A DNA stretch of 54,560 nt, from the NCBI GenBank assembly GCA_001929475.1, contig LXFE01002012.1:1-54560 (forward strand), written 5' to 3'. How positions within the stretch are numbered: the stretch's first letter is position 1; each line of letters starts with the position of its first letter. This document shows, piece by piece, positions 5,349 to 54,092 of the stretch. Origin of the DNA: Neolecta irregularis DAH-3. Its lineage: Eukaryota. The notes beneath the pieces are model-generated. The model made no database searches. It was not told where the DNA came from and saw only the letters and a program-made list of their open reading frames with translations. Position numbers and translations under genes: made by a program.

Positions 5349-6213
5349 CTAATAGATTTCGTCAAACGGCCTTGTATCGTGGAAGCAGGAATCAAAGACT
5401 TGTTCAATGGTCCGAGAAGCCTCTTCGTCAGACTTACAATTAGGGTTGTTTCTGAGGGCTTGAAAAGCTCTCCGTTTCACGCAATTCTGTTCTCTTGTTA
5501 ATATAATTCATTTGTTCAGTCGTGCCTGATGCTGCTTCACAAAGCTCACCTGTTTTCGTTCGAAAAACTCCCGCGACCATTTACATTCCCCACTTAGCGT
5601 CATGGCACGGATCTATTTTTGTCAAGGTTACTCGTTATCGGCAATTTAAATACCTCCGAACAAGCATGATGCTTTAAATTCCCCCAGTCTACGTGAAATC
5701 GACACATGTCATATACATGCATCATTTCGTGAACAAGGGTATCTTCCATATGCCTTTTCCCGAATATTTTATTCTGGCATAAGACTATTCCAGCCTGCGG
5801 AACGATCCCCCCAGCCTGACGTCCAGCGCACGGGACACATTTAAGTCTATCAAGCGTAATTGGACATTGAATTCTGTCAAGATTCTGCATCATAAAGATT
5901 ACGGCGGGGGCTAGGGGTATTAGTATATTAGCAGAGAGGTCTCCGCACAAGTTTTGAGAGCTTGATTTCTCCATTTTTCGCAGCGCTCCTTTTTTGCAAA
6001 ATAGAATTTCCTGTCGGCAAATTCCTGATATTCCTGCTTCTCTGCTTCTGTCAAGCCGATATTGAGAAGGTATTTGAACGATTTTGTCCAATAGTTGAAA
6101 TCTGCCTGTTCTTGGGGTGTCACTGGCTTTGGTACAAAGCGATCATCGGTGGTCTCCGGTGATTGCGGTGCATGCGGTTCGTCAGTGAATGGCGCGGGGT
6201 CCGCTATGGACAT
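5349..6213 (-). CDS. ATP23: Mitochondrial inner membrane protease Atp23 (M76), 3 introns
   Basis: HEXXH motif EDTLVHEMMHVYD, HHACSEIRA, and C-terminal QHQNCVKRRA...FDSCFHDTRPFDEIY*. Confidence 0.95.
5487..5525 (-). other. Probable GC-AG intron (39 nt) in ATP23
   Basis: CAG|GCACGA...AACAG|AAT. It contains an in-frame TGA, and splicing keeps the conserved KQHQ-x-CVKRRA. Confidence 0.7.
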
Positions 6214-7043
6214 TTCTCTATAGAGTTTCGCTGATATATGTAGTCGTTGAAGTTTGTGGTTGTGATGAAGAAAACATAATTACAATAAAAATAGGTTTAT
6301 CTCATTTTAACTTCTCCCTGTCGGCATATTGGATATTCGATTGAGATGAGGCTCTTCCTCATCAAATAATATTTTCTTTGCTTACTAGGCCGGTATATAA
6401 TTAAACAGAATGATAAATAATCATTCTATTGCTTTTCTGAAATGACGCAGGCTGGGACTGAGCAGACGATAGCTTCTCAATATCTTCACGTCGCCTAGTA
6501 ATTCCAGAGATTGCTGCTATAGGAGTTTCTTTAATTTTCCGATGATGCGATATGAAACGACAGAGCCTGAACTGGATCTGCTCTTATAACGTGGACAGGG
6601 AGTGAAATTGTGTGTAACAAGCTCCAAGTCCTATCATCTCAAACAACTCCTGAATTCGACGGAGAGGGTAGACTTGGAATCGATGAAAGAGTGATAGTAA
6701 ACCCATAAAAACAAGTGGCTTCGTCTTGAATAATCTGTACACTGCATCATTACTAGTTCAACAATGGAATTGTTGGGAAATTATTGCCCTGAAACTGTAC
6801 TTATAATAACGGAAAATGATACTGGGCACTGGAAGGTAATTTGTCACATTAACAGGGCAAAATAACATGCTTTGAAATCAAAAATACGAATTTTGAAAAT
6901 ATTTATTATAAAATCAACATCTAAACAATGTCGCCGATGTAAGTCTAACTAAATGGAATTGCCTATGCGTTGTCAATAATCTCCTTACTAATATAGGAAA
7001 AAATACTGTATTCGACCCACATAATAGTCATTAGTGGATCAAG

Positions 7044-7953: not shown

Positions 7954-7986
7954 AGTGGTGCTCTCTCATAGAGCTGGCAGGAGCTC

Positions 7987-11282: not shown

Positions 11283-12363
11283 TTACGGTTGATTATGACG
11301 TTTGTCTTGAGTAGAAGGTTCTTCTGGATTTAAAGCAGGCTGTGCTTGCGGGTCGAGATTCTCCATGGGAGCGTCATCCATTTTCTCGTCGAGTTGGAAA
11401 GGGATACCGTTGTTAGAAGCTGAACTATTGATATTTTTAGGAGCTGTATCTTTGGTCCTGTCATCGCCGGTTTGTTGAGATTCATCGTTATCTTTCATCT
11501 GGATATCGGATTCGTCCTTCTCTCTAGAGGTTCCGGAACTAGGATTGTTTGGTTCACTTACATGACGAGTAGATGTCTGATTAGCATCTTCATTTTGGTT
11601 CACCTGTTCATCCCCTTCTTCAGATTCTTTCTTAAGTCGTCGCTGTTCATCTTCTTCATCTATGATCTGATCTTTAGCTCGAACGATTTGTTCGTCTATC
11701 TGATCGTCTTCGTCCGAACTTAGTTTCCAAGGGAGATAGTACAACCTTGGTTCAGCCTTTGTCTGGATAAAGTGGGCCTGGTGGAGCAATTGCGAATGCC
11801 GAGTTTGCATCTATCGTATTTATTAGCGTGTTCATCTTGAATAGAAAGACTTACGATTCCTTTTTCCATTTTCTGTTCGCTCAAGAGGACTTCTCGATTC
11901 ACCTCCCGTCGTTTTTCATCATTCTGCTCTTTCTCTTTTTGAGCCAGTTCCTCTTTTTCGCGCTGCAATCTTTCAGCCAATTTAGCTTCTATTTCTGCGC
12001 GACGGTTTGCTCCAGCCTTAGCTTTCGTAGAACTCGATTCCCTCTGAATCTTCCCTAAAGTTCCCAAAAGGTTGCCGAACATTTTCTGTCCCCGTTTTCT
12101 CTCATCTGCACCATCGAAGATAGAACTTCTCCGACGGGATGAGGCGTGTTCGGTGGAAGGTGCCAAACGAGGCCGTTTAGAATCCGGAGAATTAGTTGAC
12201 AAACGTCGTTTTTGGGTAGATGACTCTTTAGAGAATCCAGTGCCTTGCTCTCCTGCTGACCGAGAAATCGTTGAAGGGACGATAACGCTTGACGCAACAA
12301 TGGTTCTAGAATTATCAATAGGCTATTTCGCCAGGGCGATCTGTACGGGCCAGAGTGATTCAT
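11283..12363 (-). CDS. Pinin/SDK/memA domain protein (2 introns)
   Basis: DERKRGQKMFGNLLGTL, RRAEIEAK and AHFIQTKAEPRLYYLPWKL are pinin-domain motifs. Confidence 0.88.
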
Positions 12364-13730
12364 GCCTTAATATATAGAAGCCGGAGATGATACAACGAGG
12401 CAGTATCGTAGAAAAAGAAGATTTTTGAAAGCAATAATGCAACTATAGTCAGTGGGCAAGGTAGTTTCCGGAAGGATGAGTGAATCTCGGCGGTAGAGTA
12501 GTTGGGAGAAGGGAAGCAGTCACCACCAAGAAATGTTACCTACCAATCAACAATTGAGAACCTACAGACTTTTGAAAGAGCATTCGTTTCATATACACAA
12601 ATTAAGCTAGTGATACCAATGAATTGAGTGCGATAAAATGTGCAAATGTGCCATCGCATGATTGTGAGTATCAAGCTAGCGGTCCTTAATGTAGTGTAAC
12701 TTCTGAGTGGTAATGTAAGGATATACCTTTGGTATATCTTTTCCAATGCAGCAAGTGGCACGCAATATTGTGAGCCTTTCATTTTGTGTACATAAAGCAG
12801 AAGATGGGAGAAACCTGGTGTATGCTCACTATCTCAGACTAGGTATATCCCCATACAAAGCTCACTATTGTAGACTAGTATGCTACAAATCCTGGGTTTA
12901 TTTGTCCACTGTCGAGATTCTTACGGGGATGTATGTGATAATAACAACTCGTATACCAATACAGAATGAAGCCTGGTGCGCTAGATGCGCGCGTGCCTCA
13001 AATTTCCTATACGCTCTGTCAATCAGACCTCTGCTTCCTACAGGCGCGATTCAGCCTGTACTGCCGTGTGGGGCGGTGTGGACTTGGTAGTCCCCACAGA
13101 TCCTCAGACAAACTAGTGAATAAAGATTCATTCATATTCTTCTTCAGGGGAACGCTTCGTCGCGCCTTCTCACCCTCAATTGTTTCTATCTGGTCAAAGA
13201 TCGTGCGGCACAACACGCTGCAAAGAAAGTCTCCGGTAGTATAATTGTTTTGTCCGCCTTTCATTATTGTGTCATCGCTACACATGTCTTTATGCTCAGT
13301 GAGAGCCTGGTATCTTATCTCTATTTCCAACTTGAAACCCCTCTAAATCTGAATGAATGATAGGGTTTCCGGAACGTGAAACAATCTGATGAAGAAGTCC
13401 GATGTTTCTGCCTCTGGGTCTTGCGCTATGAAACCTTACTGGAAATTGCAAAAGTTTAAGTCAGATATAACGCGTCTCACGATAACTGCCATCTGAGGTA
13501 TTTTTATCCAAAATTAGTGTTATTTGAAGATAGAAAAGGAGGACACTTCGCTGTGCTGTCTTCATTCAATCTTTACCCGCCCGAAAAGTCTTTTTTACCT
13601 TTGAGGTTTGTCTTCAGTCACTCTGCTGATCTCGTAGGGTGCTTTTATTCATTACTTTTTCCTTTGAGGTTAATGTCTTGAGTAAGGAGATGTACTTACT
13701 ATCCAGCCGGCCTCTTCCAAACTTATCACT

Positions 13731-16240: not shown

Positions 16241-16380
16241 CCTAGGAAGCCCTTTTTACCTATCTCAGGCGAGTCGGCAGGACGCAAAGAAAATCCGTCG
16301 AAGATNNNNNNNNNNCCTAGGAAGCCCTTTTTACCTATCTCAGGCGAGTCGGCAGGACGCAAAGAAAATCCGTCGAAGAT
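16241..16380. other. Scaffold gap (10 N at 16306-16315) flanked by an exact 65-bp duplication; assembly artefact
   Basis: 16241-16305 is identical to 16316-16380 on either side of the N run. Confidence 0.85.
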
Positions 16381-18699: not shown

Positions 18700-19781
18700 C
18701 TATTTCCCGATCCCAATCAAAGTTTCATCGTCGTGATCCATACTAAACGCTTCATCAGATTTAGAGGTTGGAGAACTTTGAAAGCCAACTCCGCTATTAC
18801 TCTGAGTACTGGTACGGCATACATAACCTTTCTCTCTCAGAGGAATACCAATGGCCCGAAGCCACCGACGATATATTTGAACAGTGTCTGGGCCAAAGCC
18901 GAAGAAAGCAAAAGTGATGAAAGACGTGATTGGAGATATGTAGTGGTGATCGAGCTTTGTTTTTTGATTGTTGTAAAAGGCCGTTATAGTATCCCAAAAT
19001 TCCCAATGGCATAATTCCCAACGGTACTCAGTTTTCGGATTTTTCAAGTCCTCGACTAATACAACGAAAGTGAGAGGAGTCGCATAGCACAGAATGATAA
19101 GAGACATTAAAACCAGTCGAATGAAGCGGGACTCATTCAATCCGGATCCTTGAAGGATTGAATCAACCTTTCGTCGCCGTCGAATATAACGCACGATCAA
19201 GAGAACTAATTTCATTAATCTCTTTTATCTTTGAAGAAGAGTTAACTAGAGTAGCTTGATGCGACGACGCAAAATATGGAAGGCCAGATAGATATCAATC
19301 CCACCAGGAGCCACGAGGGATAAACTGATGGCTTGCAACCATAAAGCCCATAAACGATATATCGATTTGGTTGAACAATATAATGTACTCCCATAATAAA
19401 AACCGGAGGAAATATACAAATGATTGAATCTTGAATTAATCTTCGTCTTCGAGCTTCTCGGGTCGTGAAACTCGCTGAAGCCTTCATGATATTTGCAAGG
19501 TAACGGATCAAAGCTGTAATCGAAGCGAGAATACCAATAGATTTTGCTAGAGTAATCTTGACTGCAACATCGCAATATCCGGTTCCAACCCAGGCTTCTG
19601 ACTCTAAAGGATCTGGATCGACCCAAATGATACTGTTGATGAAGGAAACCAAATTCGAGGCGATAAGCCAAAAGAGCAGACTGATAACCGGAATATTTCG
19701 ATGTTGGATATGCCAAATACCCGGGACGATACAGAGAAAAATAGCTATTCCGCAGAGAACTGTAAAGACCGTGTCGCCCAT
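18700..19781 (-). CDS. map3: STE3-family (a-factor/M-factor type) pheromone GPCR, 1 intron
   Basis: Seven TM helices with NLVSFINSIIW, GYCDVAVKI, HYIVQPNRY..YGLYGC, SGLNESRFIRL and FAFFGFG. Confidence 0.93.
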
Positions 19782-20150
19782 GGAACTAGTTTTTCAAAAG
19801 AGAGTTGGAGATTCTCCCTCCGGCATATATGCAAAAAGATCAGATTAAGACAAGGCTTGCTACTTGTCTGGTGTAGTCCTTTGGACAGTTTCTATTGGAA
19901 ACTTGTTTAGGTAATAATAGAAAGCGAAATTCCAGAAATATTTCCTTTTTGGGACTCTAATAGGCTCCGCTCTACCATATCGGTCTGAAGCAGAGACTTT
20001 GTAATCGCTGAAGACGTTGGGCTCGTAGATATAGAAAAGAAACAGGGAATGGCTTCGCCTAGACGGAAGACATCGCATGGTTAGTCCAATTTATCTCCGA
20101 GTTGGAAGAGTGTCACCTCAAAACAATGGGTTCTTACCACCTATTGAGAA

Positions 20151-23973: not shown

Positions 23974-24690
23974 ATGGATCCCTTCGAAGGCCGATTGTCA
24001 TTTCTAAACCACCTCAAACATTTAAATGCGTCGCATTCATCATCCCAAAAATGCGCCCAATTTGCTCTTCGGCATTCTGATCTAGCAGAAGACCTATTCA
24101 GCTGTATACTCGAAGAACTCGACTCGGTATGTATCTTCTACGTTTGAACTTTAATCGGTAGACACACTTGAATGTACGTGTCAACCTATTACACCTTGTC
24201 GAAACTATATTAGATAATCCAGCGTCTAAGGAAACTTTATATCCTGACCTATTTTCAACAAATGTGGAGCGAATTTTAAAGAATTGTGTTCCTGCTGAAG
24301 GCGGGAGGGTAAATTTACAAGTTGTGAAGAAAGTACTTGAGCGGATGTATGCCAAGGGATATATTGACGCATCTTTGATGGAGGGGTTACAGCGAAAGTA
24401 TCCACTATTCAAACGAAAACGAATGCATTGATCTAGTAGCGATTTTTCCGTCCACGAATTTGGGAAAGAGGAAATATTGAGGCGCTTCGAAGAGGATAGG
24501 GAGAGGGTATGTTATATGGGAGCAAAGTGAAAAACTAACAGTACAGCATAAAAGACTCAGGGAAAATATATGGCAGATTGCATCCGATATGGAGTTCGAC
24601 AGAATGTGGGAAGAGAGCGCAGACTTTGACGAGATAGACTGGGTTTACATGAGGGAAGAATTTGAAAAACTAGAATCTTCAACAGGATAG
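23974..24690 (+). CDS. CTK3: CTD kinase I gamma subunit Ctk3 (3 introns)
   Basis: MDPFEGRLSF...LNASHSSSQKCAQFALR...EDLFSCILEEL and RRFEEDRERHKRLRENIW. Confidence 0.9.
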
Positions 24691-24786
24691 ATTGTGATTA
24701 TTATATGGTTCGCCTACTTTCCCGATAAAAGGGAGCTTCAACCTCGAGGTATCCACCAGAGATGATACGATTGTTCATGACTATTA

Positions 24787-25329
24787 CTATTCCAACACTA
24801 CCTTTGCTCCCAACCCAGTCAGCGTCTCTTTCATTTTCTCCGCATCTTCCTTGACGACGCCTTCCTTTAAAATCTTTGGGGCACTCTCCACAAATTTCTT
24901 TGCTTCAACAAGATTTAGCCCCAATAAGTTCTTCACTTCGCGAATAATCTTGGCCTTTACACTAGCATCTACGGCCTCCAGTTTAACGTTAAACATTGTT
25001 TTCTCTTGGGGTTTTTCTGCTTCAGGAGCGGCTTCCACAGGCGCTGAAGCAGGAGCAGCCGCAGCTGGCAGGGCAATATCTTGAATCTTAAGTTTGATCT
25101 TCATTGTTAGATCCGAGATACAGAAAGGAATGCTTTTAGGGCGGATATGAGATTTGTGGTCTCGAGGAGCGTTAATTCCGAGATCTGGTTGACGATTGTT
25201 GTGATTTTTGCCGTAGAATTATACCGAACAGATCTTGATGTAGATCTCGGGAATCTCCTACGTAGTCAAGTTTCATATTCTAAAATGGTAAATATACCTC
25301 ACATGTCTGGATATCGAACGAAGGAGCAT
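24787..25329 (-). CDS. MRPL12: Mitochondrial ribosomal protein bL12m (L7/L12), 2 introns
   Basis: Arg-rich presequence, IVNQISELTLLET, and KAKIIREVKNLLGLNLVEAKKFVESAP. Confidence 0.95.
25099..25133 (-). other. GC-AG intron (35 nt) in bL12m
   Basis: AAA|GCATTC...CTAAC..TGAAG|ATC joins LISALK to IKLKIQD. The only GT alternative gives a 23-nt intron. Confidence 0.75.
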
Positions 25330-30905: not shown

Positions 30906-30964
30906 CGGATATCCTACGCACATTGACTAGGACGTAATTGGTGTCCCGGTATTATGAATACTAT

Positions 30965-34425: not shown

Positions 34426-35059
34426 TCAGAGACGGGTTTCCACCCAGTCAATCCATTCCTTCGTATCTCCGTTTGATACGCTTCCCTTGATCACGGTCCA
34501 CTCGCCCAATTCTACATCTTCTTGTTCCTTCTCACGTTCTGCCAGCTCATTAATCTCAGCCTGCAGTATTGATTCGATTTTCTCGACTGGTAGGGCAGTA
34601 AATAATTCGCTCTTATTCGCTGCCACTAGGATGCTTCGATATCTCTTCAAAGTTTGGTATAAATAATCAGATACGACTGAGATGCTTTTGGAAAAATTGG
34701 AAGAGTCCAAAAAGAATAATACTGGCGTAGTGGGTACGGTATAAGTGTCCAACTCACTTATGAGCTTTGGATGGCCGGGTATATCGATAACCTCGACCTC
34801 CCTATTTGATGATAACTTAATCAGTCCAATGTTTGGTTTCTGAGACGTTTGAGTCGGGTAGATCTTGTTGTATTGCAACTGATCCGATCAGTTCTACTGT
34901 TTCGGACGTAATTACTTGAGTAAAGAAGGCTGTCTTTCCAGAATTCGAAGGGCCTACGAGAAGGAACCTGGACTTTTTTGCGGGCCGGAGGGAATAAAAG
35001 AGGAGGAATGCAATGAATATGGCAGAGAAAAGTAGTAGAACATCTAGCACGCGAGGCAT
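34426..35059 (-). CDS. SRP102: Signal recognition particle receptor beta subunit (1 intron)
   Basis: N-terminal TM, P-loop GPSNSGKT, DIPGHPKL and LVAANKSELFTA. Confidence 0.9.
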
Positions 35060-35434
35060 TGTAGAGGTTTCAAGTCAAATCAGACCGCCTTGCCGCGGCT
35101 ACATAGAAGAATACACAATGTATATAAACAAGATTATTAGAGTTGCAGATTGAAATGCTCAACAAAAGATTGTCAAGAAAAGACGATATCAGGGCAAATG
35201 CTGTAATAAACATTGAGTTTTAACTTATCGCCCCCGAATGACAACCAGCGTGTATCCAGGAAACCTCAGGTATCTGATCCAGAAGGGTACCCCTGCGCTC
35301 TCTTTTGATAGGGGGTCGCGCGATAATACAGCTCTACTGTTAGAATTGTTACTGTCCATGAAATAAGTTGAAACACATCATCCGCATCATGGAATCATCC
35401 ATCTAGTGCTCTTTCGAATCCCGGTGGAGCAGCT

Positions 35435-35740
35435 ATGACCAATATACAAATGCGAGATATTGATGATGCTTGTAGAGAACGTTCTTTTTCTCCAAATCCT
35501 TGTCAAAAAGTCATGCTTGCATTTATTTATGAGCGAGTTTATGAAACGGTCTTAAGAGCTCGCATGAAATATTTCTTTGCTCACTTGGATGAAGATTTGA
35601 AACTTGCATATGAAACATCCTATATTCCTGCCAAGGTCATCATCTCCTTGTATATTTCTGTCGTTTCTGTTTCACGATTGATTTTGAATTATTAGACATT
35701 CATGTATCAAGTGACAATTCTGGATTTTGAAGGTAGCTGA
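35435..35740 (+). CDS. Possible small orphan gene with one intron
   Basis: ATG 35435 ORF, then AAG|GTCATC...TTAG|ACA giving TFMYQVTILDFEGS*. No known motif. Confidence 0.3.
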
Positions 35741-35897
35741 CAGAGCTGTATATTCACCAATATCGCCATGTTTGGATATTTTATAAAGCTCTAATTTATA
35801 GAAGATTACATGTGGGCAAACCTTATTATGAATACTCTACAAAGAAAACGGGATATATGCACATTCCTTTTGCCATACGTTCCCACGCTTCCAGTTT

Positions 35898-36632
35898 TCA
35901 AAGCTGCTCACACGACTGGGTTTCATCGATCCACCCATTCCAACGGTCCCACTCATATCTTGAAATATCAACTCTCCAATCTATCATTTTCAAAAAGCAG
36001 AGTTCCAAAGGGTTGATACAAAACTTTTGGAGCTCAAACATATCTGCCCAACATTCTCTCGAAAGTTTCAGTCTATCCTCAACGGGTGAGTAGATGCGAA
36101 ATGCAATATATATGGAAATACAAATAAGACTTTTGAGGTAAAGCTCGGAATAGGCTTTTCTAGGAGGGGGAAATCTTGATAGAAGAATAAGTGAGCCTCG
36201 AAGAACTTGAGGCTTGCCTCTGAAGAATGACAGAGACGTGAGCTTTTCGTAGACAACAGATGGTAGACATTGAGCAGTGATTTTATAAACTACTCGGGCA
36301 TAGACCCTCTTGTGAATGGGAGAAAGTGATCGTTGGATAAGATGGTCCCTTTCATCAGGCACTTTATAGTCGTCTAGTTCTTCTTCGATGAATTTGGTGC
36401 TGGGAAAATACCAACCATATAATTTGTAAGTAAAGACCGTAACATCAGAGCCTATAGGAGCATTGGTGTGAAGAACATGGCCGTCCACTGAACTAGGAGG
36501 TGTGCCATTGTTTGACCAGTCGCTCTCTTCGTCTGGCGTGAAAGACTGAGAAGATGAAAAAGTGAGAAGAGAGGCATTTCTTTCCCTTATAGACTCGTCA
36601 GTTGCTGAATCTTGGGTGGTTCTGCAACTCAT
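35898..36632 (-). CDS. Divergent intronless cyclin-fold protein, paralog of 205-921
   Basis: QVLRGSLILLSR...YIAFRIYSP...CWADMF...INPLELCFLKMIDWRVDISRYEW. Confidence 0.75.
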   Translation of the reverse strand: MSCRTTQDSATDESIRERNASLLTFSSSQSFTPDEESDWSNNGTPPSSVDGHVLHTNAPIGSDVTVFTYKLYGWYFPSTKFIEEELDDYKVPDERDHLIQRSLSPIHKRVYARVVYKITAQCLPSVVYEKLTSLSFFRGKPQVLRGSLILLSRFPPPRKAYSELYLKSLICISIYIAFRIYSPVEDRLKLSRECWADMFELQKFCINPLELCFLKMIDWRVDISRYEWDRWNGWIDETQSCEQL

Positions 36633-36970
36633 TCTTTAGTCTGAGATAGGTAATCTAGTATCTATGTATCAAAGGAGATTAGAAGAACATCTTGTGGTTA
36701 TTAATATGGTTTAATGTGTTTGAGCAGATGTGGCGGTAGGTGGTCAAGTCTAGGCAAGGGGATGGATGCTGTCCAAGCAATCGGAGACGAAAATTTACCT
36801 CCAAATTGTTTTCCTTGCAATAGCGAGAGTAAAACAAAATAGTTCACTAGCGCTTGAGCCAAGAAGATACAGGGACACACATTCGAGCACTAGCAAGGAT
36901 GTAAATATCATGTCGTAAATTAGGACAACTCAAACAAAGCAAGTCCCAAACGCCTCGCACCATTTCCATT

Positions 36971-37464
36971 CTATTCAGTCCCAATATCTTCATAAATATG
37001 ACCGCATGCTACGCAGACATAGAACAATGTCTTTCAATGAACGGCAATGTAGAAAACAGACGTACCATTTTAGTTTCGGCTCTCCGCGCTTGGCTTTGAA
37101 AGAAGACGGCCTCTCTGTTCTGACATTTCGGACATGTCTAGGTGTTAGATTTGACAGGACGCAGATGATGACACCTTGCGTGTGCGGGGCAATGTGGGAT
37201 CTTTCCCAATGTCTTGCGTGACGCCGGCAGTTTGTCTGCAACATGAGGCAGGGCCAGGAGTGTTGCATATACCCGACTTTGGTCATGAGTTCATTGCGGA
37301 AGACGCGGTTGCTGTCTGCGTAGACGGTATAATCGCAGTTGCGACAGCTGTACATCAGGCGTTTCTCCTGCTTGTTTTCGCGCGGATATAACAGATTGTT
37401 GCCTGGCAGTGTCAGGGAGGGAGCAGGAGCGGAAGGTACATTCTGCGCAGAAGGAGGTGGACAT
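36971..37464 (-). CDS. RPB9: RNA polymerase II subunit Rpb9 (4 introns)
   Basis: FCAECNNLLYPRE...CRNCDY, DPTLPR, CPKC...AVFFQSQ...MTLFYVCVAC. Confidence 0.96.
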
Positions 37465-37795
37465 GGGCGGGTGTAGGTGGTTTTCAGCGGCAAAGAGGCG
37501 CGGAGGCGGTGCCGAAGCCAACCCACACGCCGCCGCACGAAGGGCAGAATGGGACTAGACGGGCAGTCTCAGTCGACGGGCCCGCAGGAAAAGGACAACG
37601 CCATGCTGGATGGGTGCGCGAGGGCCTACAAGGGGCGCGGCGGGCTGCAAGACGGGAAACGCAGTGATTGCCGATCGCTGCCTGTTGCAGCCGGGGAGCC
37701 ACAACCGCCTAAAAGCGATATGTCAATTCTGCTTCCAGCAAAACTGCCAAGTACCTCAAATAGCTGCGCGACCCTGAAGCACCGCGCCTGCTCCG

Positions 37796-39159
37796 ATGCA
37801 TCTTAAAAACATCTTGAAGAAGAAGAAGTCTGCCCCCCTTTCGAGTTCGCCATCAAAGCAACAGCAGCAGATACCGCTATCATCACCAGCAAGTGCAAGT
37901 GACGATGTGGTCATGGCCGTTGTTGACTCTTCTCTGCCCGCCGAGCCCCAGCTAGACCCACAGCAGATACAACCCCAACCACGGACTCAAACACCATCGC
38001 AGCCCCAGGAAACAACCGAAATACACGTTCCCCTTCCGCGCTCGCACCAGCAGCATGGCGTGCTGACCCCAATTCACACTCCCGCCGTTGAGAAACAGAC
38101 ACCCTCCACCTTGCCCCGTCCCACAAAGGGCAAATACAACCTCGTCGATTTCAGCATCAACAGAACCCTCGGCACAGGCAGTTTTGGCAGAGTTCATCTC
38201 GTCCAGAGCAGACACAACAATCGTTTCTACGCAGTAAAGGTACATTCCCTCTTTCTCCCGTCTCTGACTCCTCCAGGTCCTCAAAAAGGTTCAGGTTATC
38301 CGTATGAAGCAGGTCGAACACACAAACGACGAGCGAGCCATGTTAAGTATGGTCAAACATCCGTTTCTCGTCTGTCTATGGGGAACCTTTCAAGATTCAA
38401 AGAACCTCTTTCTCGTCATGGATTTCATCGAGGGCGGTGAATTATTCTCACTCCTCCGGAAATCGCAACGTTTCCCAAATAGCGTCGCAAAATTCTACGC
38501 AGCAGAAGTAGCATTGGCTCTAGATTATCTGCATACTCTCGATATCATATATCGCGATCTAAAACCTGAAAATCTACTGCTAGATCGAAATGGTCACCTC
38601 AAGATCACAGATTTTGGATTTGCTAAAAAGGTGCCGGATATCACTTGGACCCTCTGTGGAACTCCAGATTACCTCGCCCCAGAAATCGTCGGTTCAAAGG
38701 GCTACAATAAATCCGTCGATTGGTGAGATTTCGCTTCCACTATACAAACTGACTTTCAGGTGGTCACTCGGCATTCTCACTTTTGAAATGCTCGCGGGCT
38801 ATCCACCCTTCTATGACGCCAATCCTATGAAATTGTACGAAAACATTCTCGAAGGGACAGTCAGATATCCACCGTACTTTGATGCCGCGGCCCGAGATCT
38901 CTTGTCAAAACTTTTGACCGCTGATCTCAGCAAACGATACGGTAACTTGGTCCGCGGAAGTCTCGATATCACGGATCACGAATGGTTCAAAGAAGTCAAT
39001 TGGGAGAAACTTGGTCGCAGAGAGATCGAAGCACCCTACGTTCCCCCTGTTCGCGCTCAAGGCGGCGATGCGAGTTGTTTCGATAGGTACCCAGAAGAGG
39101 AAGGCGAATACGGTGAAGGCGGAATTGATATGTATGGTGGTCTATTTCCAGACTGGTGA
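37796..39159 (+). CDS. pka1: cAMP-dependent protein kinase catalytic subunit (2 introns)
   Basis: [47 protein letters not shown] and FDRYPEE. Confidence 0.97.
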
Positions 39160-39413
39160 ATCCGGTGTTTTTGTTTAACGCGGATGTATATTGGTACGGG
39201 CATGTTCGACTTGATCTCCGGCTTTTGGAATGTTCAATTCGGATGCTATTTTCTGATTCGGCCAGTCAACGGTTTAATAGTTAGACTGATTTAATCAATA
39301 TTTATGTCTGGGGGTTATATACAACAAAATCGACTTTCATAATGGCAAGGATCACGATGAATCTCTTAGTTTATTGGCCAGTAAAACTGGCTGCTTATGA
39401 TATTCAAGATTAC

Positions 39414-41307
39414 CTATGGGGTACAGCGACCTGTAAAGCGGGGATATAGGCAACAGTCCCTTTCAATGTCAGCGAGGCAAATCTTATAAAACACGTACCG
39501 AATTGTATATCGATCGCACATCCAAGCCAAGAACCGCTCCAATCCCAGTCCATAACCACCATGTTCGCACGTTCCATACTTTCGTTGATCTGTAAACCAG
39601 TAATATGGTGAAGGGTCGATTCCTTCTCGGGCATATCCTCGAAATAGCTCTTCAGGCTCGCTGATCCTCATACTTGCACCGATAACCTCGCCAACTCCCG
39701 GCATCAACAAATCCGCACTCTCAGTCACGCGGTTGTCCACCTTTGATCGCTTCATATAAAAAGCTTTTAGCTCTGCAGGGAAGTGGGTTAGAAAAATGGG
39801 TCGACCAATATCGTCTGTCATTTTCCGCTCGGCTGCTTCGGCGATATCATCTCCGAATTCGTGAGGTTTACCCTCTGGGTCTCGGATATCGTTCTTTTGG
39901 AGATAATCGATCGCTTGAGCATATTTCATTCGCAGGAAGGGCCGGGAGGGTGGTTCAAAAGTTGGATTGAGTATCCTTAGCAGCTCTGATGTCTTGGAGT
40001 CTGCGAGGACATTGTCAATCGTTTGACAAATCTAATTTGAGTATCAAATGACAAGGGGTTGTTGTACCAATTCTTCTATATGCGTCAATAGTTCATCAAA
40101 GTCCAAAAACCCCAGTTCCGCCTCGACATGTGTGTACTCTGAAAGGTGCCGCCTGGTATGGCTTTTCTCAGCGCGAAAACTCTCTTGGATGCAGAAAACG
40201 TCTCCCAAGCTGGGCAAGCATGTTTCAAGATACAGTTGACTTGATTGTGTGAGGTAGGCCTGAATATTAGATAGTTTTTGACGTACGGTGATTTCACACC
40301 TTTTCGCCATAATAATTGAATTCGAATAGAGTGGATCCGCCTTCAACTTGTGTTTGCACCATGCAGGGAGGTGTAACTTCGAGTAGTCCCAGTTGCTCGA
40401 AGGCCTTTCGGAATCCTCGAAGTGTAGCAGCCCGAACTTTCAACACAGTTGAGGCAGTCTCTCCTCGAATGACGAGATGCCGGAGGTCGATAAGCGTGCT
40501 TGGGGATGTATCCGTGGAGATTCGGCTGTTGATGGCTTCTTGCTCACCGGGAGCCTTTCCTTCGAGCACAAAGTAATCCGTCGTCAACTCATGGTTGTCA
40601 GGGGCAGTCTTCCCTTGTGGAAGAGCACTGACAATCCCAAAAATTGTTATTGAGCTTTCAAGAGTAAAGGTAAGTGCATCATAAGTTTTAGCCTGCTGGT
40701 TAGTGTAATTGTAGAATGAGTCATACCAACTGACCGGTCAAAACACATTGTAAGAAACCAGTTCCGTCCCTCAGAACGATAAAAATAAGGCCTTTTTGGC
40801 TTCGTAGTCGATGGATCCAGCCAGAGACTTTGACACGAGTGTCCCGGTTAGCAACGCTTTGTCTGATTTTGATTTTTTTCGCAGCTGGTAAGGAGGAATC
40901 CTGGACAATAACAATTCTTTTAGCGTCTTCGAGGCGTCTGAGTTCATCTACTTGTGCATTTGCAGTTTTCCCTTCGTCAGTTATCCGTTTCTCCTCCGCC
41001 TTTCGTGCTTTTTTAAGATTTCCATCGGCGGTTTTTTTGGCTTTCTTCAACGCTGAAGCGGTGATTTCGATGAAATCTACCTCGCCTGCCCTTTTGATTT
41101 GTATTTTAACGTCATCACCGTGGATTTCAATGACCTTGGAGGCCGACTGGTATGGAGCTGTTCGCGAACCCGTTCCCGAGTCGTCTGAGCCGGCCACTTC
41201 GTCCACGAAACATATCTCTGATGCTTCAAATCAGAGTGGAAGGAACGGGATATACTATGGGTCCCGATATGCAGCTTCTCTGCGGCGTTGTGGAGAAGGC
41301 TAGACAT
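39414..41307 (-). CDS. DED81: Cytosolic asparagine--tRNA ligase (5 introns)
   Basis: VSGWIHRLR...[38 protein letters not shown] and [11 protein letters not shown]. Confidence 0.97.
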
Positions 41308-41619
41308 TGGGGTGGAGGTGGTGAGCAGGTGTGGTCAAGGAAGCGAGGGCAACGCGGGCTATTGGAGGACTGCACATCTCAAGAGCAGGGTTACAACTGC
41401 CAGAATGGGCAGCTGGCATTTGCAGAAGAAGGATATAGCATAGCATTGTTGATGCTGGTGTAGCTTTCTGGCAGAGAAGCGCAGATACAATGGACATGCG
41501 GTATGGCATCGCGGTAATGAAAACGGATGAGAGTGGAAGAGTGGAGGGAATAAATGGTGGAGCGGAGCAGCATCTGGCTTTATATAGGGCATATATGCGT
41601 TCTATGGGGTATATGCAAG

Positions 41620-42099
41620 CTAGACGACCTTGGACGCGAGTGACGCAATCTTTGCAAAGCCGCGGTCTCGCAGCTCGAGGGCGACGATGCCGAGTATGCG
41701 CGTGCCCAGCGGCTCGCCCTTGTCGTTGATCAAAACACACGCATTGTCATCGAAGCGCACCGTCTTGCCGTCTGGCCGCTGTGTCTCCTTTTTTGTCCGC
41801 ACCACCAGCGCATGTCGCATGTCGCCGCGCCGCACCTTTGTAGTCGTGATAGCCGCACCCTGCCCGACAATCTGTGCTACAGGCCGTGCTTTCTGCACAA
41901 CCACCGAGATGGAGTCGCCTGTAGTTTAGTATCCTGCAAATCAGCGGGGACAGCCACACCGATCCGCGCATGTGTTCCGCCGTGCAGCACCCGCACACAT
42001 TCCACCAGCACCGCGCCCTGCCCGTTAGAAGAACCCAGCGCCGCGCAGGGAGCATGCCGTGTTGTCAATCACCTTCAGACAGGACTTGAGGCCGATCAT
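41620..42099 (-). CDS. Mitochondrial ribosomal protein uL14m (2 introns)
   Basis: MIGLKSCLKVIDNTGAVLVECV...IGDSISVVVQKA and DGKTVRFDDNACVLIN...GTRI. Confidence 0.95.
42018..42057 (-). other. GC-AG intron (40 nt) in uL14m
   Basis: ACG|GCATGC...CTAACGGGCAG|GGC restores the conserved IDNTGA. Confidence 0.88.
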
Positions 42100-42199
42100 T
42101 TCTTTGAGAGGAGGTTGCGAAAAGACGCCACAATCCGCACCGGCACGTCCACCCCTCGCTAGTCCGCTCGGGGCTTTGTTGCCGCCCTTTGCCCCGTCC

Positions 42200-44186
42200 A
42201 TGGGGCCTCCCAGGTCCCTGACGCTCCAGCGCTTCTGCGAGTACGATGACATCCTTTCCGATTGTCTTGTCGATAGAATCCATTTCTGGACCAGGGCACG
42301 GCAATGCCCCGCAACCCCTGCTCATATCTGCAGGTACATAAACTCCGGTCAAACTACCATCCAAACCGCAAAATCACAGATCAAAAGATCATTTCTCTCG
42401 TGAAAGAATTCACCATCAAGCAAAAAAAGCTCTCACCGGCAGTCGAAGCGTTTGTTCTGTGCGACCCGTTTCAGAGACTTGCTGAATTTCACAAGCCTTC
42501 CAGGAATATACCCTTTTTTCTCGAAGCTCGAGGATCGCGAGAAACAGGACTTTATCCGCCATGCCCGCCAGTATTTCTCCCTCTATCTTCCTGCTTCTGG
42601 CTTCGAAATCGGAACGACTGACCGTTACATCTGGTCTTCAAAAGTCGAAGCATGTATTGTGGCAACTCGAGAATACAAAGCTGGCGACGAAATACTTCAC
42701 CTCTCCGGAACAGCACTGTCCATGACCCCCGAAGAAGAGGAGCGGTTTCAACAAGATGAACGCGACTTTAGTATTATTTATTCATCGAGGTTGGATGCAA
42801 TGTGCTTGTTTCTCGGACCTGCGCGGTTGATCAACGTATGGATTCCTCTCGGTTGCGTGAAACTCAACAATTAGCATGACTGCGAGTCAAATTGCCGCTT
42901 TTTAATCAACCACACTACCGTAACTATGCGAGTCAAACACCCAATAGCAGTTGGCGAGGAAATCACTACATTCTACGGGGATAGTTATTTTGGCAAGAAC
43001 AATGCTGATTGCCTTTGCGCTACATGTGAAAGGTACGGAGCCATTGCATTTTTAACAATTTACGAAAAGGAAAAATCAAGGTGGATATGGTCAAAATCGA
43101 GTGCAAAAGGAAGACTCGATGGATGAACAAGAAAGCTCTTTTCCCGAGACCTATTCGTCCTCATCCTCACTCACTGTATGTAATGACGCTGATTTCGACT
43201 CGGAAACACAACAATCGCGCTTTACAGCCTCGCAACTCTATCGAAGGAAATCACTTCGCAGAACAGAAAGCGGGGTCAGTCAACCCCCAATAAAGAAACA
43301 AGGTCGTAAACGCAAGCAGGCGATTTGCACCAATCCCAATTGCTATCAGAATTTTACCGATCCAGATATGAGTACAAGCTGTAAAGCCTACTGTCCTCGG
43401 TGCGACCGACACTCGATTTTGTTCGATCTTGCCTGGCCCAAACGAACCCGGAAGCTAAATGATCCCGAGCAATATGTTCCAGATCCCCGAGGGATATATC
43501 GATCCATCTCCAGAGCGGAGCTGAAACGCATTGAACAAATGCGAACCTCTGTAGATGAAGAGGAAAGCAGTGACGCGGACATTTTTGAAGATAAACTTGC
43601 CTATGAGAAAAGCCGCGAGCAACAAAGACGTCATTCTGAGCCTATACGATCTACAAGGCGAGAGACCAACGAGCCGATTCCGAAGAAATGCAAAATTGAT
43701 ACAAGAGTAAACAATACGCGTCGAAAGACCTTTACCACATCTTCTACGACAACATCATGTGTTGCTCCCATCAAACCTCGTCGGCTCAACGCTTATTCTC
43801 GTGCAAAGTCTTCTCCTCCCAAGGCTGCAGCACCGAAGCCTCTCGCAAAGGATGTCGGTAGGCTGAGTTTCAAATCCAGGACTTGTGCTTTGTCTAGTCC
43901 GGATACCATCGTGGCGTTGAAGGGTGACGATGCAGACAACGACAATTCTGACCCGGAAAATGATAGTAGCTCTCGTGTATCTTATTCGACAGTGACAAGA
44001 CCAAGCTCCATGTCCTCGAAAAACGACGCTACAGAGAAACCTCAAAGCTGTCGTAGAGCAGGCAGGAAACCCCAAGAAGCAATATCGATTGCTCGCAAAG
44101 TAAATAAGGATGTCGAAACGCGTGAGAGGCGTCAAAGTTTAAGAAACACTACCAAATCGCTGCGACCTATTTATTTGACTAGTTAA
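42200..44186 (+). CDS. set9: Histone H4K20 methyltransferase Set9 (4 introns)
   Basis: YDDILSDCLVDRIHFW, RDFSIIYSSR...LFLGPARLINHDC, GEEITTFYGDSYFGKNNADCLCATCE and CPRCDRHSILFDLAWPK. Confidence 0.94.
42296..42333 (+). other. GC-AG intron (38 nt) in set9
   Basis: AGG|GCACGG...CTCAT ATCTGCAG|GTA. No GT lies inside the segment, and 38 nt would frameshift if retained. Confidence 0.85.
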
Positions 44187-46287
44187 TTCTGAATTTACCA
44201 AGTGTAATTTTAGGCGGTAATTCATGACGCACCTGTCGCCCAGAATCCATCCCACTTTCTGATGATCGAACTTGGGTTATTGAACTCTTGTGGTTGTAGC
44301 TCACAAGGGCCGGAAAAAGGAGCACTTATCCTTAAAGAAAGCAAACGATTGATAACCATGGTGATATATTCTTGATGATGATAGAAAAAGGGGCGAAACC
44401 GCTATCCTAAATACCCGCAGAGCACGACAGCCTTATCCAATCAAAAGTGGATGGATAAAAAAAGAAAATTAAGCCCCAGTAATTCTTGGTGACTCATTAG
44501 CATTTCACATACTCCGACATCGAGGATACTCTTAGGAAAACTGGATCCAACACAGGAAACAGAACTTTTAACCATGGCAGATGAGAACAGCAGATTATGG
44601 GAATGCGCGATATAAATAGTGAGACATCGAGGGTCAAGTTGCATTGAGCGGGGTTCTTTTGGTAAAACTCCAATTTCAAGATTGCATACGACACACCTCT
44701 CTCTTCCTTGATTCATAGCTCCCCGTAGAATCTCGCCAAACAATGGTCTTTATTACAATGAATACGAACTTGTTGGTTCTATTATCGCGACGAAATGATC
44801 CACGTCCTACCTTGGATATTCCAAATAACTGCTGTTACGTTAATTCCCGAAACAATTGATTTCTTGGGGTTGATTCAAAAATCATAAACTGGAATACAAA
44901 GCGGCTGAGTCCAATATAGCCAAAGTTCAAACGATGTGAAGCGGGGGCTTGCTATAGAAATATACGAATCGCCTACCGCTAAAGTACTGGCAGTGTCAAA
45001 GCGATGGCTCCTTGGACATTGACCATTGCATTGAATCCAATGACCCTTTAACTTCGTTTGATTTTTAACCTCGTGGGAAAATCTCAAGTCAAACTTTATG
45101 GTACCGTCGAACCTGCTGATCAAACGAATGTGGCATATACGTGTGTTGAATTCGATATAATCCGATTCGTTGTATCGTGATAGTAAAATAGAAGAAATAG
45201 AAGATCCAAGCCATCTAGTCCAAATGAATCAGAGAGAACAATAACTGGATTTCTGAGCTCTGCATCAATCATCTTCATTTTTTCCAAGTGAGTCTCCCCA
45301 GTGTTCCTTGAAGGATCTACAAATAAATCCTGTGGTCTGGATTAAATCAGCTTCAGATCCTTGTTTAACCTCTAGCTATGCAAATGCATGGTGTTCAGCG
45401 GCTAGCCATAATCGGGATAAACTTTTCACTACTCCTTAATCCTGAATCAGTTGGAAAGCCAGTGTAAAAATATCAGTCTTCATCGATGCAGGAGAAGTGA
45501 AAAGAAAGTTCAGAAATAACATTCGGGAGCAAGTAAGGAAACCTCCGTTCCTCCGTTGCATTATCGAACCACTATTAGGAAGAGGAGACTTCTAAGAAAT
45601 TCAGTGGCTTGTTCGGTACATCACGAGCTCCAAATTTGAACCGATGCAAGCTATATGGAAGGTCTATGATTCACTAGTCAGCCATGTTCCCATTCTTGAC
45701 GGGCCACAGAAAACAATGCGTTCTTCGTGGCATCAATTTAGAGCGCCAAGTGTCACAGTTCCACCAGAATATTGGGAAATGCTGAACAAGGTTTTTCCTT
45801 CATTTCAGCTCATGGGAAATCGAGATTCATCGGCTCAGATCCAATTTTCCAAACTCAGCGACATTGAAATAATCACGGAATAATAGAGCTTATTAGGAAG
45901 CTTTAGTAGAACGGATATAAGACCACAAATAGGTTGTGGATGTCCAACATTTAGGGTTCACTTGTGAGTTTCAGGTGCCAAAGTTACTGAGTGTGAGTGG
46001 TCAGCTGCTCGCAACTTTCTGATGTCTGACCTCATCGTGCAGGATATGACAGATGGGAGTTTCTCCACCAACACAAGACCAGTCAAATGGAATCTGCAAG
46101 GTTAGTTAAAAAATGCCTGGTACGAGGCCTGTGGATCTGCGAATAGAGTATATCAGTGATATCACATTCATCAAGGCCAATTGCAATGGTTATGGATGAG
46201 GATGAACGTGGGTGCGGGTAAGCCCGGGACTGACGGAGGCAGCCGGGTGTGGTTGTGTAGGCGGCCGTTCCTCACACCAACCTCACA

Positions 46288-50034: not shown

Positions 50035-53000
50035 TCATTCACTGACATCAGATATCTCTTCGTCCTCATTTTCTTCACTGTCAGAGCCTCCCTGAATGTA
50101 ACTGACATTAGGAGCAACACGCGCACTCCGCCGTCTTTCACTCAGAGGTAGGACAACTTCCTTGATCTTTTGCTTTCGAGGAGTTTTGCATTTTCGAGGA
50201 GTAGTACGCGTCTTTTTAATAGGATTTCCAGACCCTTCATCTGATATTTTTCTCTAGACAATGAGTTTTATATTGATCATCAAGATACTTTTTTATTCGT
50301 TCTGGATTCTAAACGCATAGTCCCGGGTAGACTCGAGAGTATATCTGGAGGCAAAAAAGACTTGCGAGCAATCTCAGCGGCAGTTGTTGAATCAGCAAGA
50401 GTTTTAAAGATATCCTTGTCAAGTTTGACTTTCTGTGGATACGTCTGCATGATCCAGCCCATTTGATCAGCCTTGCTCTTTATCAAAACTTGCGCCATAT
50501 CAGAAAGCGCGTAAATATTCTCGATCGTCAGTAATGATATGGTATCAGAGAGATACTTTGCTGTTGTCCGGCTCAATTGCATCGCAAACTTGTTTTGTGC
50601 GCTGGGCTAGATGGAAGAGCAAGGATACATTTTCAACATTGGCAACAGTTTCAAGGTAAAACGTAAAATATCTATGCCATTGGAACAACTAGACGATCGC
50701 CAGACATACCTTGAGAATTCTAGTAAATCTTGAGCGCTGTCACTGAAATCCGGATGATGAGCAAGAAGATGAACAAGGCGAGGTAAACCGAGTTCAAGAT
50801 GATGAAGTTTACGAGAACCTGGTATTAATAAAATTTAACTAAAAGCATACGGAGTTGAGCAGCTTTAGATTTTAACGATAATTTGACTTCATCGCGTAGC
50901 TCTGTCTGGGGCTCATGGGCCATTAGAAATAACAGCGTGTAATATCGAGGAGGTATTCTGTCTAGCGCAAGCGCTTTGATCAGTTTGCTGACGATTCCTT
51001 GACGCACTTGGTAGCAAGAATCCTAAAATTAACGAAGATGCAGATAATAAAACCTGAATGAGATATGCGACTTTATTAAAGTCTTGAGGGTAAATCATAT
51101 CTTCGTACTCTGCAATGCATGCAAGCTTCAAGAGACACCCTCCAGCAACTAGCCTTAAACGCGACTGACAAAAAGATCTTCAAGGTAAGTCTTGGCGTAA
51201 AAAATGCAATTTACGGGGTATCTTTATCCTTGCTAATTTCACCATTATTAGCAATAATCGACCCAAGAACTCGAAAAACAGGCAGGCCAAGTTCTTTTGC
51301 AGGAAAATCTTGATGACGTGCTCTCAAACGATTGACCAAAAATTGTACAGCAAGAATCTCTTATTAACAAAATATCACGCGGAATACATACTTTTGCTTG
51401 TGTTTCCTTGTTCAAATTTTCATCGTCTACCCATTCGGCATCGTCGCTAGTCCCACTAATTTTATTGTGAAGCAGAATCTCGCGAATGATGTATTCCGTA
51501 ATCGTATCAACATGCTGTTGCATGACTTTAGGCATGCAAAAAACAAGTTGACGTAGGACAGACATTTGCGATACGAAATACTTGTTTTCAAAAGTCAAAT
51601 CAGCCATGATATCCTATTCCTCAGTCATGGATATACATTATTTCTTACGGAGAGCAAATCGCGGGATAATTGAGTTTTTTCGTCTGTTTGTGTCAAAATG
51701 GTGATGGCATGCTTTGCTTGAGGGGCGGTTCCAGTTCTTGCAAAAATGAGCAGCGCATCAACGAGTGACTGGTCCCTGGGCAAATCTTGAGGAAATGCCC
51801 TGGCAAATCGAGCAAGCGATTGAATCGTCTCAGTTAGTGCAGAGCTAGTTGTTGAATCCTCAGATTTGGCTTCAGAGCAAAGTAGATCTGTGATATCTGT
51901 GATTGACTGTTTATAAATGGCAGGCTGACATTCAGATATTTCCTATAATTAGGGACGGTATTTACTGCATGATACCTTGAGAAAGGCATGTGCAGGTTGA
52001 TCTAGACCCGATTTTGCGTCGCGTGTAAACGCAACCAAGATGGGAATGAAGCTCTTGTTGTATGTTGTTAATGCTATCCTATTAACGATGGGAGCCCAAG
52101 TTTCTGCCATAGAGGAGGAAGCCTGCTCGATCCTTTTAAGAGCCTCTTTTTGCGCTTTTCGTACAGACTGGTAGTCGGACTGTGCGTTCATTGTTTCACG
52201 CAGCAGTTTATAGCACCGTCGATCGTGAGCGTGTGCAAATTTAAGGAGATCCTTTTCAGTTTTGACTGGATCTGGCATGGTGTTTGCCAGAAAGTGGGCG
52301 ACTTTGTTTAGATGAGTTTGAGTTTCAGCAACTTGTGAGACGCCGCCCTATTGTAAGATTATGTATAATAAATCGTACGTTGTATTTTTCGCAAAGATGG
52401 AGATATTTCAAAATGGGGGCTGACCATCTAACCGTGAGCAGGGATGGCAGGAAAAGTACTGATTCTGCTTGCGCAATACCGAGATGAAGGCTTTTGTACT
52501 CTTACTGCCGAAATGCTTCATGAGAACGAGTATCCTTTCGACTCGAGCTTTTTCGTCTAGACGGGAGGGAAGGAACCGTTCATGAAGGACATATTCGATG
52601 AATGCGTTAATTTCCGGATCGTTTACGTATATTGCATTAAAGATTGCTGAGGGAAGCCAGGCTAATTTTTCTACAGCCGCGTTTAACTCGTGCAGACTAG
52701 AAGGTATTAGATGAAAATGAAAAGTGTACATGTCCGTATAAGCCTTGTCCCATAATTTTGCAACGGAGACCATTGCGTTTTCACGTACGGGAGCAGACTT
52801 GTCCTTGCAGCGTTCTGCCAAGATTTGGAGCAGTTGGTGTGGAATTCGTTCCATTACGATTTCATAATCAAACGATCCGAGGATGTTACAGGCCGTTGCG
52901 CGTACCTTGATATCTGAATCTGCGAGTAGGGATGCTATGCCGTTTGTGAGATCTTGGACGACCTCTGGTCTGTGGACTAGGATGTCTTTTGCGCGTTCGA

Positions 53001-54092
53001 TCCATTTGATGCGGACCTGGGGGATTTTATCTTTTTTCCTGCCTTGCCAAGCGGACCAGGTTTGGGGGTACAAGTGAACCAAGTTTGTTGCTGGGTCTGC
53101 AATCATTGCACCAAGGGTATCTGTTGCAAGGGTTCGAAGATGGGGGTTTACGACGACGAGTTCATTTTCGAGCAGTGGAATGACATTCATCAAGACCGGG
53201 GGAGCTGCTTTCCATAGTTGTATTATCAGGGAATGGGCGGTATCTAGTTGCTGCAAGTCATCTTGTTCTGGGGAAGCTGATTCGTACAAGACGTCTGTAA
53301 AGTATTGGCAAATGTTTCGTTGGAGACGTTCTGCGGCACGGGAGCAAATGTGTTTAGCCATTGTGTATGCGGGGTGGAAGGAAGGATTTAGGGGGGAAGT
53401 ATTTCGCATAAACTGGCTTAGGATGACGTCTGTGATTTGTGGGGAGATTGCTTGGGCCTCGTCTACGAGCTGCTGGAGGATCTCTGTCATTAAGTGTTGT
53501 ACGTTTTTTGGGGTATGTGGGCTATGGGTTAGTTGTGTGGGGGAGGAGGAATGACTTTGCGATATCGAAAAAGAGGCGGAATGTTTCGAGGATCAAAGGG
53601 TCTGCGTTTGAGAGGTCTGTCATGAGGATGATTGTCTTTACTGTGGCGAGACTGTCGAGGAGGTAGAGGTACTGGGGGTAGTAGGGGGATTCGTGGGACT
53701 CGAGGCCCTTTAGCTGTTTGAGGAAGCAGTCGAAGATGAGCTATGGGTGAGAAAGAAGGAAAGGGGAGCGAGGTACGGCTAGCTGGTTTTCCGTAAAGGG
53801 GGCGTCTGGGGCATAGAGACGGAGGATGTCTGCGAGGCAGCAGGCGGTGTATGCTCTGACGCCTCTGTCTTTGTGGTGGAGCAGGGCATTGGCGGGGAGG
53901 TCTGCAGTGACTGCGGCGAGAGAATTGCGGGCGACGGAGTCCTGGGGCAATTGGACGAGTTCGAGGTGGAGGGCCTGGGGTGAGAGGGAGCGGGAGGAGG
54001 GAGAGTGCCTTGAGGCGTTTGAGGAGGACGGCAAGGGGGATGGGCTTTGCGGGGAGGGAGGAGAGAGGGTCGGTAAAGGATAGGGAGTGCAT
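50035..54092 (-). CDS. PDS5: Cohesin-associated protein Pds5 (~14 introns)
   Basis: LLHHKDRGVRAYTACCLADILRLYAPDAPFT, CEKYNGGV, SRLRLVAG..LLKLA and LVHLLAHHPDF. Confidence 0.95.
53975..54008 (-). other. GC-AG intron (34 nt) in PDS5
   Basis: AAG|GCACTC...CTCAC CCCAG|GCC joins LLKRLK to ALHLEL. It has no GT and is not a multiple of 3. Confidence 0.85.

Follow-up and report, generated by a model that had tools for sequence, protein, structure and literature searches.

U2-type introns that start with GC rather than GT make up about 1% of introns in animals, plants and fungi. They have GC and AG ends, a U2-type branch, precise removal and an enrichment of G at the last exon position (-1), and compensation for the C at position +2 by the donor AG/GCAAGT (the slash marks the exon-intron border) is usual. 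Here we describe seven GC-AG introns within a 54,560-nucleotide (nt) stretch of the genome of Neolecta irregularis DAH-3 (GenBank assembly GCA_001929475.1, contig LXFE01002012.1, positions 1 to 54,560 of the forward strand), which we call the window and number from its first base. N. irregularis is an intron-rich, early-diverging ascomycete. The seven introns share these ends, the branch motif, the precise removal and the enrichment of -1 G with ordinary GC-AG introns but differ in two respects: such introns account for ~6-8% of the introns in the window and at least 13% of transcript joints, and the strong AG/GCAAGT compensation is missing from their donors at positions +4 to +6.

Fungal annotations contain on average 98.7% GT-AG introns (PMC7072748, section 3.1), and lineages with a large GC-AG share have been described among algae: 39.6% in Aureococcus anophagefferens, 22.2% in Micromonas pusilla and 7.7% in Chlorella sp. 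(Iwata and Gotoh, 2011; PMC3033335). These algal genomes have 66-70% G+C, to which the authors tie the GC-AG excess, and RNA base modifications or proteins of the U1 small nuclear ribonucleoprotein are suggested as reasons why GC-AG fractions differ (PMC3033335). The Neolecta window resembles the GC-rich algae in having a GC-AG share many times the norm. Unlike them, it is only 40-50% G+C, and it belongs to a fungus with introns of ~36 nt.

Two other comparisons can be made. Meyerozyma guilliermondii is an intron-poor yeast. Like Neolecta, it is a fungus with several percent of GC-AG or AT-AC introns, its annotation containing ~6.67% major non-canonical splice sites, strongly above the fungal average (PMC7072748, section 3.1); that figure derives from gene models, whereas four of the Neolecta GC donors are backed by transcript contigs and Neolecta is intron rich. 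In intron-rich species more generally, 5′ splice sites are less conserved than in intron-poor ones (Irimia, Penny and Roy, 2007, cited in PMC8476143). N. irregularis, for which 4202 introns at sites in 1211 orthologs have been counted, comparable with Pneumocystis (PMC7940399), fits this description in being intron rich and having donors that are degenerate beyond +4. However, the pattern in intron-rich species concerns positions other than +2 and does not extend to a higher proportion of GC donors.

We found no literature pairing Neolecta with GC-AG introns, although intron statistics for this species may be given in the supplements of its genome paper or in the species-level files that accompany PMC7072748. 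The words intron, splice and splicing are absent from the main text of the N. irregularis genome paper (PMC5309816), which refers annotation to its Supplementary Methods, and judging by titles and the opening lines of abstracts, none of the papers found to mention both Taphrinomycotina and GC-AG addresses genome-wide GC-AG frequency. Supplements aside, the trait looks unreported for this lineage. Neolecta would join the known lineages rich in GC-AG introns and be unusual among them as a fungus of moderate G+C.

Results

Seven short introns with GC donors

A preliminary description of this DNA, made from the sequence alone, had placed GC-AG introns in seven genes. All seven intervals start with GC and end with AG on the strands and at the coordinates given here, and their donor hexamers are exactly those it listed. 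They lie in ATP23 (5487-5525, minus strand, 39 nt; cag/GCACGA, branch TTAAC, 3′ CAG), where the intron appears as a gap in homolog alignments; in the gene for bL12m, the mitochondrial bL12 (25099-25133, minus strand, 35 nt; aaa/GCATTC, CTAAC 8 nt from the terminal AAG), where it is a probable intron; in an FHA-domain (Vps64-like) gene (28487-28520, minus strand, 34 nt; aag/GCATTG, branch CTGAT, 3′ TAG); in a Pho80-like cyclin gene (31881-31914, plus strand, 34 nt; tag/GCACAC, branch CTAAA, 3′ CAG); in the gene for uL14m, the mitochondrial uL14 (42018-42057, minus strand, 40 nt; acg/GCATGC, branch CTAAC, 3′ CAG); in a SET-domain gene (42296-42333, plus strand, 38 nt; agg/GCACGG, branch CTCAT, 3′ CAG); and in PDS5, as its first intron (53975-54008, minus strand, 34 nt; aag/GCACTC, branch CTCAC, 3′ CAG).

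Retention of any of the seven produces a stop or a frameshift, and removal leaves open, protein-like joins. The branch motifs are of the YTNAY kind and lie 6-11 nt from the AG. The U12 donor consensus is ATATCC (PMC3033335), and its ATCC core occurs in none of the seven donors. Removal at the GC borders is documented by transcript-contig joints for three introns, at the donor only for a fourth, and through homology only for the other three. The seven are genuine U2-type GC-AG introns, ordinary and short: for six, the GC donor is the site where removal occurs or has to occur, and for the seventh, in bL12m, it probably is.

Transcript contigs join exons at GC donors

Contigs from two runs, X1 (DNA) and X2 (labelled 'DNA?'), were aligned to positions 24400-44300 of the window, a 19.9-kb stretch chosen to contain five of the seven claimed sites. 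Since the X2 contigs skip 31 short segments that X1 retains, X2 behaves as complementary DNA, that is, as a transcript assembly. Among the 15 of its 31 joints that were listed, 12 read GT..AG or CT..AC, and for the other 3, GC..AG is the only canonical-like reading within an ambiguity of 2-3 letters. In the cyclin gene, the joint 31878 to 31913 has 3 ambiguous letters and resolves to GC..AG at 31881-31914. The uL14m joint (42016 to 42057, 2 ambiguous letters) reads CT..GC along the plus strand, equivalent to GC..AG for this minus-strand gene, and the joint in the SET-domain gene (42294 to 42333, also with 2 ambiguous letters) again gives GC..AG. For the FHA gene, whose joint, like that of bL12m, belongs to the other 16, the X2 evidence covers the donor side: an unbroken piece aligns to 28521-30102 and stops exactly at the GC donor, with 515 further contig letters beyond it.

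Exons of these three genes match protein families. The cyclin exon upstream of the intron fits Pfam PF08613 through its last residue, a downstream exon of uL14m fits PF00238 positions 35-122, and a later exon of the SET-domain gene, the putative set9, fits PF00856.

It is hardly credible that the GC donors are artefacts, either T-to-C errors of sequencing or assembly at +2 or introns misdrawn beside true GT donors. A check for such errors had been proposed, and X1 covers all five sites in the aligned stretch without a base difference at any of them; its 2 differences from the window in 19.9 kb both fall outside the donors. Misdrawn introns might be suspected because there are in-frame GT donors near all seven sites, the public FHA model uses one of them and bL12m has a GT-AG alternative. 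However, transcript contigs place four of the donors at GC, which refutes the idea for those four, and the GT alternatives remove residues that homologs keep. The earlier statement that no usable GT exists does not hold, as the public annotation's use of one makes plain.

The nearby GT donors raise another possibility. GC-AG introns have been linked to alternative 5′ site choice in animals, and in ATP23, the FHA gene, uL14m, the SET-domain gene and PDS5 the alternative in-frame GT donors are 15-27 nt upstream. Selection could be keeping the GC donors as weak sites in certain genes, where they would make splicing regulated or inefficient, with the intron retained or one of the in-frame GT donors close by used instead. 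The X2 contigs are only GC-spliced at the four sites seen, a weak argument since contigs drop rare variants, and the genes concerned are unrelated housekeeping genes; we regard selection of this kind as improbable.

The uL14m (minus strand) and SET-domain (plus strand) genes are arranged head to head (42058-42300), with first exons no more than ~100-200 bases apart, and the first intron of each is GC-AG. The X2 contigs over 31677-34916 and 41224-44300 each contain, within a single contig, joints in both orientations (GT..AG and CT..AC), so that they must span neighboring genes on opposite strands. Either the transcripts overlap, in a genome that is very compact, or the contigs were assembled as chimeras.

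Homology across the junctions

The nearest relatives of ATP23 are Pneumocystis proteins, with 43-52% identity. Between FVKQHQ and NCVKRRA, the tblastn alignments of all four Pneumocystis homologs require a gap, in each case of exactly 13 codons with a stop among them, and an in-frame GT donor 24 nt upstream (cag/GTGAGC) would remove 8 residues kept in all four.

A phmmer search with a PDS5 exon returned P0125, the public Pds5 of N. irregularis DAH-3, which is 99% identical over the exon. The GC-spliced translation equals the first 94 residues of P0125 letter for letter, and more distant homologs (P0126, P0127, P0130 and P0136) align across the junction LLKRLK/ALHLEL. When the public model is mapped back to the DNA, the remaining 13 introns are all GT-AG. 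Two of the mapped introns are long, that at 52348-52479 (minus strand) having 132 nt, far outside the 32-42 nt range, and that at 51023-51071 having 49 nt. Directly upstream of the PDS5 start, positions 54094-54287 contain purine-rich GGAGG-type repeats and an array of CAGTAG/AGCAAC-type hexamers of ~100 bases, whose minus strand reads as a long run of leucine codons.

In the FHA gene, the public model P0275 instead uses a 52-nt GT-AG intron (28487-28538, minus strand) with a donor 18 nt upstream, and drops the residues VGQYLK. Because the relative P0276 (64% identical) has SVGQYLK before the junction and the X2 piece covers those codons, the public model is wrong at this intron. The GC donor has led the annotation astray here, at the cost of six conserved residues.

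The bL12m gene contains a frameshift that must be removed, and two introns of equal length, 12 nt apart and giving proteins of equal length, can remove it: the GC-AG intron and a GT-AG rival at 25087-25121. Against a profile of 90 homologs, the GC model scores 214.0 bits and the GT model 211.9, a difference of 2.1 bits for GC. At one column, where every one of the 90 homologs has R, K or Q, the GC model places K and the GT model F. The branch CTAAC of the GC model scores 6.2, whereas the only well-placed motif of the GT model, ATCAA, scores 1.0. From these comparisons of sequence, bL12m quite likely uses the GC-AG intron at 25099-25133.

The only database entry 100% identical to bL12m, P0005 (105 residues; 24790-25104, minus strand), holds the C-terminal domain only. 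Its length and the translation of the window suggest that its first codon is an ATG within the intron, and it looks like an open reading frame (ORF) call or a truncated model that lacks the N-terminal exon.

Anatomy of GC and GT introns

The 7 GC introns were set against 30 GT introns: 12 taken from transcript joints, 13 and 4 from the PDS5 and FHA models, respectively, as mapped onto the DNA, and a single one from homology in ATP23. Twenty-eight of the 30 GT introns are 32-42 nt long, the outliers having 49 and 132 nt. Counted from the AG, the branch A sits at 6-9 nt in 26 of the 30; counted from the 5′ end, it sits at 23-34 nt in 28. The GC introns, at 34-40 nt, match the GT introns around them in length and branch placement. 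The suggestion that introns here are defined by length and branch point is borne out in that both are stereotyped, which fits recognition across a very short intron.

GC donors had been described as uncompensated, with only GCA in common, and this needs correction. The shared element is GCAY plus the -1 G, and three features set these introns apart or are nearly constant in them. G at -1 is present in 6 of 7 GC introns but 9 of 30 GT introns (Fisher p = 0.011; excluding bL12m, 6 of 6, p = 0.003); the 3′ end is CAG in 5 of 7 versus 5 of 30 (p = 0.009); and A at +3 is found in 7 of 7 versus 25 of 30. Beyond this, the donors are loose, with A at +4 in 0 of 7, G at +5 in 3 of 7 and T at +6 in 0 of 7, so that compensation appears at -1 and the 3′ CAG and not at +4 to +6. 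At the 7 positions outside +1 and +2, agreement with CAG/GTAAGT is low in both classes, with a mean of 3.1 matches for GC donors and 2.8 for GT donors; these means come from a previous collection of 26 GT introns, in which one had its register off by a base.

GT donors had also been called equally degenerate. This stands for +5 and +6, which are near random in both classes, and fails closer to the border, since 25 of the 30 donors have A at +3 and 20 begin GTAT or GTAC. Of five GT hexamers quoted as examples, GTCATT is present among the introns examined and the other four are not.

Could the component that reads the 5′ splice site be altered in this lineage, whether at the U1 5′ end, in the U6 ACAGAGA box or in U1C, Luc7 or Prp8, such that T and C at +2 are not discriminated and no compensation is made? 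A GC-AG share far above 1% at only 40-50% G+C, GC donors that lack a near-perfect U1 match, with +4 never A and +6 never T, and near-random +5 and +6 in both classes alike are all consistent with such a change. However, enrichment of -1 G and CAG is what ordinary machinery still paying for C at +2 would give. In addition, for the algae with 22-40% GC-AG introns, differences in U1 primary sequence were judged an unlikely cause of the differing GC-AG fractions (PMC3033335), so by analogy a U1 change is not required for a high GC-AG share. On balance we think an altered reader unlikely. A search of the whole window against Rfam returned one transfer RNA (tRNA) gene, a plus-strand tRNA-Ser (GCT) at 27508-27590 between protein-coding genes, and no other family; in particular, no small nuclear RNA gene was found in the window.

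Intron number and GC-AG share

The density of 31 joints per 19.9 kb extrapolates to ~85 introns for the window. A dynamic-programming model trained on 36 evidence-backed introns predicted 93-109, and within 24400-44300 it predicted 27-35 introns versus the 31 X2 joints. Tested on 14 PDS5 introns withheld from training, the model found 11 and added 5 false ones; because it makes false calls, it was used for counts only. The earlier estimate of ~100 introns is therefore fair, and 6-7 of the ~85-109 introns, about 6-8%, are GC-AG, well above 1% as had been proposed. Among transcript joints, at least 4 of 31 (at least 13%) in the 19.9 kb are at GC donors.

If the genome had an ordinary fungal share of ~1%, the window would hold a local cluster that arose by chance. 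The window was selected because a reader noticed the trait, and the average of 98.7% GT-AG in fungal annotations (PMC7072748) is in keeping with a low share. At a rate of 1%, however, the probability of at least 4 of 31 is 2.5e-4 and that of at least 6 of 90 is 3e-4; for 7 of 100 it is 7e-5, with a 95% interval of 2.9-13.9% for the share. Moreover, the seven sites are in seven unrelated genes over 48 kb. The observation is real and beyond chance, and a purely local cluster seems very unlikely. Because the aligned stretch was picked for five of the claimed sites and the window was flagged for the GC-AG trait, the genome-wide rate may be lower than that measured here.

Gene finding by coding statistics failed, because codon bias is almost absent: the coding frame averages 0.074 bits per codon versus 0.02-0.04 for the other five frames, and of 32 long ORFs, codon usage gives the top score to the true frame in just 16. 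A dicodon model was overfitted, Viterbi runs recovered 3-9 of 15 known introns while making from 22 to 351 predictions, and ORF-pair linking and local scans were too noisy (28 predictions in PDS5 at threshold 8, 9 of them true). Composition-based gene finders should thus do poorly on this genome. G+C, measured over the 54,560 bases in 2-kb steps, is 0.40-0.50, and a run of 10 N at 16306-16315 is presumably a scaffold gap.

Several other candidate GC introns, predicted by the trained model, were rejected: 41719-41768, which encodes the L14 motif; 33125-33156 and 33250-33282, across which a single X2 contig runs with no joint; and 12323-12365, which joins upstream non-coding sequence. A further candidate, 19222-19262, falls in a STE3-type pheromone receptor gene (18703-19793, minus strand), which consists of two long exons matching PF02076 positions 1-169 and 169-292. 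It was rejected in favor of a GT-AG intron at 19206-19246, since the match to Pfam STE3 extends over ASSYS. That GT-AG intron, which agrees with the ends of the Pfam matches, has an unusual donor, GTTAAC, with T at +3.

Discussion

How might a fungus of moderate G+C come to tolerate so many GC donors? We consider it likely that these are U2-type GC-AG introns tolerated under a very short donor code with recognition across a fixed span, without altered U1, U6 or proteins. The 5′ splice-site code would be roughly G/G-Y-A-Y, with +5 and +6 almost free, and recognition would operate across a fixed span of ~32-42 nt, in which the branch A keeps a distance of 6-9 nt to the AG and of 23-34 nt to the 5′ end. 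With donors read in this way, replacing T by C at +2 should be cheap, an expectation drawn from the form of the code, and the C could persist where neighboring contacts are good, that is, where -1 is G, +3 is A and the 3′ end is CAG. The outcome would be a GC-AG share of several percent while U1, U6 and their proteins remain unchanged. The idea of a relaxed splice code, put forward in the preliminary description, is right in outline, given a share above 1% and near-random +5 and +6; what it missed is that the GC donors are not bare and that GT donors are available.

A stronger form of relaxation can also be envisioned, in which G-Y is a co-dominant 5′ code and at least 5-10% of the ~36-nt introns are GC genome-wide, through a lineage-specific change in how +2 is read or proofread. 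Such a change might affect the 5′ end of U1 or the way it is modified, or else U1C, Luc7, Prp8 or Prp28. We think this unlikely, but if true, Neolecta would be the first fungus, and its genome the first of moderate G+C, to have such a code.

Several points weigh against tolerance under a short donor code as we have set it out. X1 is possibly the source of the assembly itself, in which case its agreement with the C at +2 may not be independent. For ATP23, the upstream GT donor is textbook-like and in frame, and the GC site there is placed by homology, not transcripts. The bL12m intron, besides having a GT-AG rival, is without the -1 G and the CAG present around the other six and five sites, respectively. 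Among the GT introns used for comparison, 13 + 4 of the 30 derive from public gene models, not transcripts. The tests for compensation were post hoc, with 7 GC introns and four features tried. Finally, a single 54.6-kb window, flagged for this trait, supplies the data, and a genome-wide share is an extrapolation.

If the share of ~7% applies to genes with roughly four introns each, about a quarter of genes would have a GC-AG intron. Gene prediction biased toward GT-AG deletes or truncates conserved protein segments at such sites, as in the Vps64-like model that lacks VGQYLK, and we suspect a second annotation error in the 105-residue bL12m ORF that starts inside an intron. Studies of intron evolution and of multicellularity in fungi use N. 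irregularis as a key taxon, so that their comparisons inherit errors in its proteome. Because the G+C of this DNA is moderate, its GC-AG excess is also dissociated from the high G+C by which such an excess is explained in algae. As a fungus that has no culturable relatives but is sequenced, and whose introns are short and stereotyped, N. irregularis provides a natural set of sites for asking what makes +2 dispensable.

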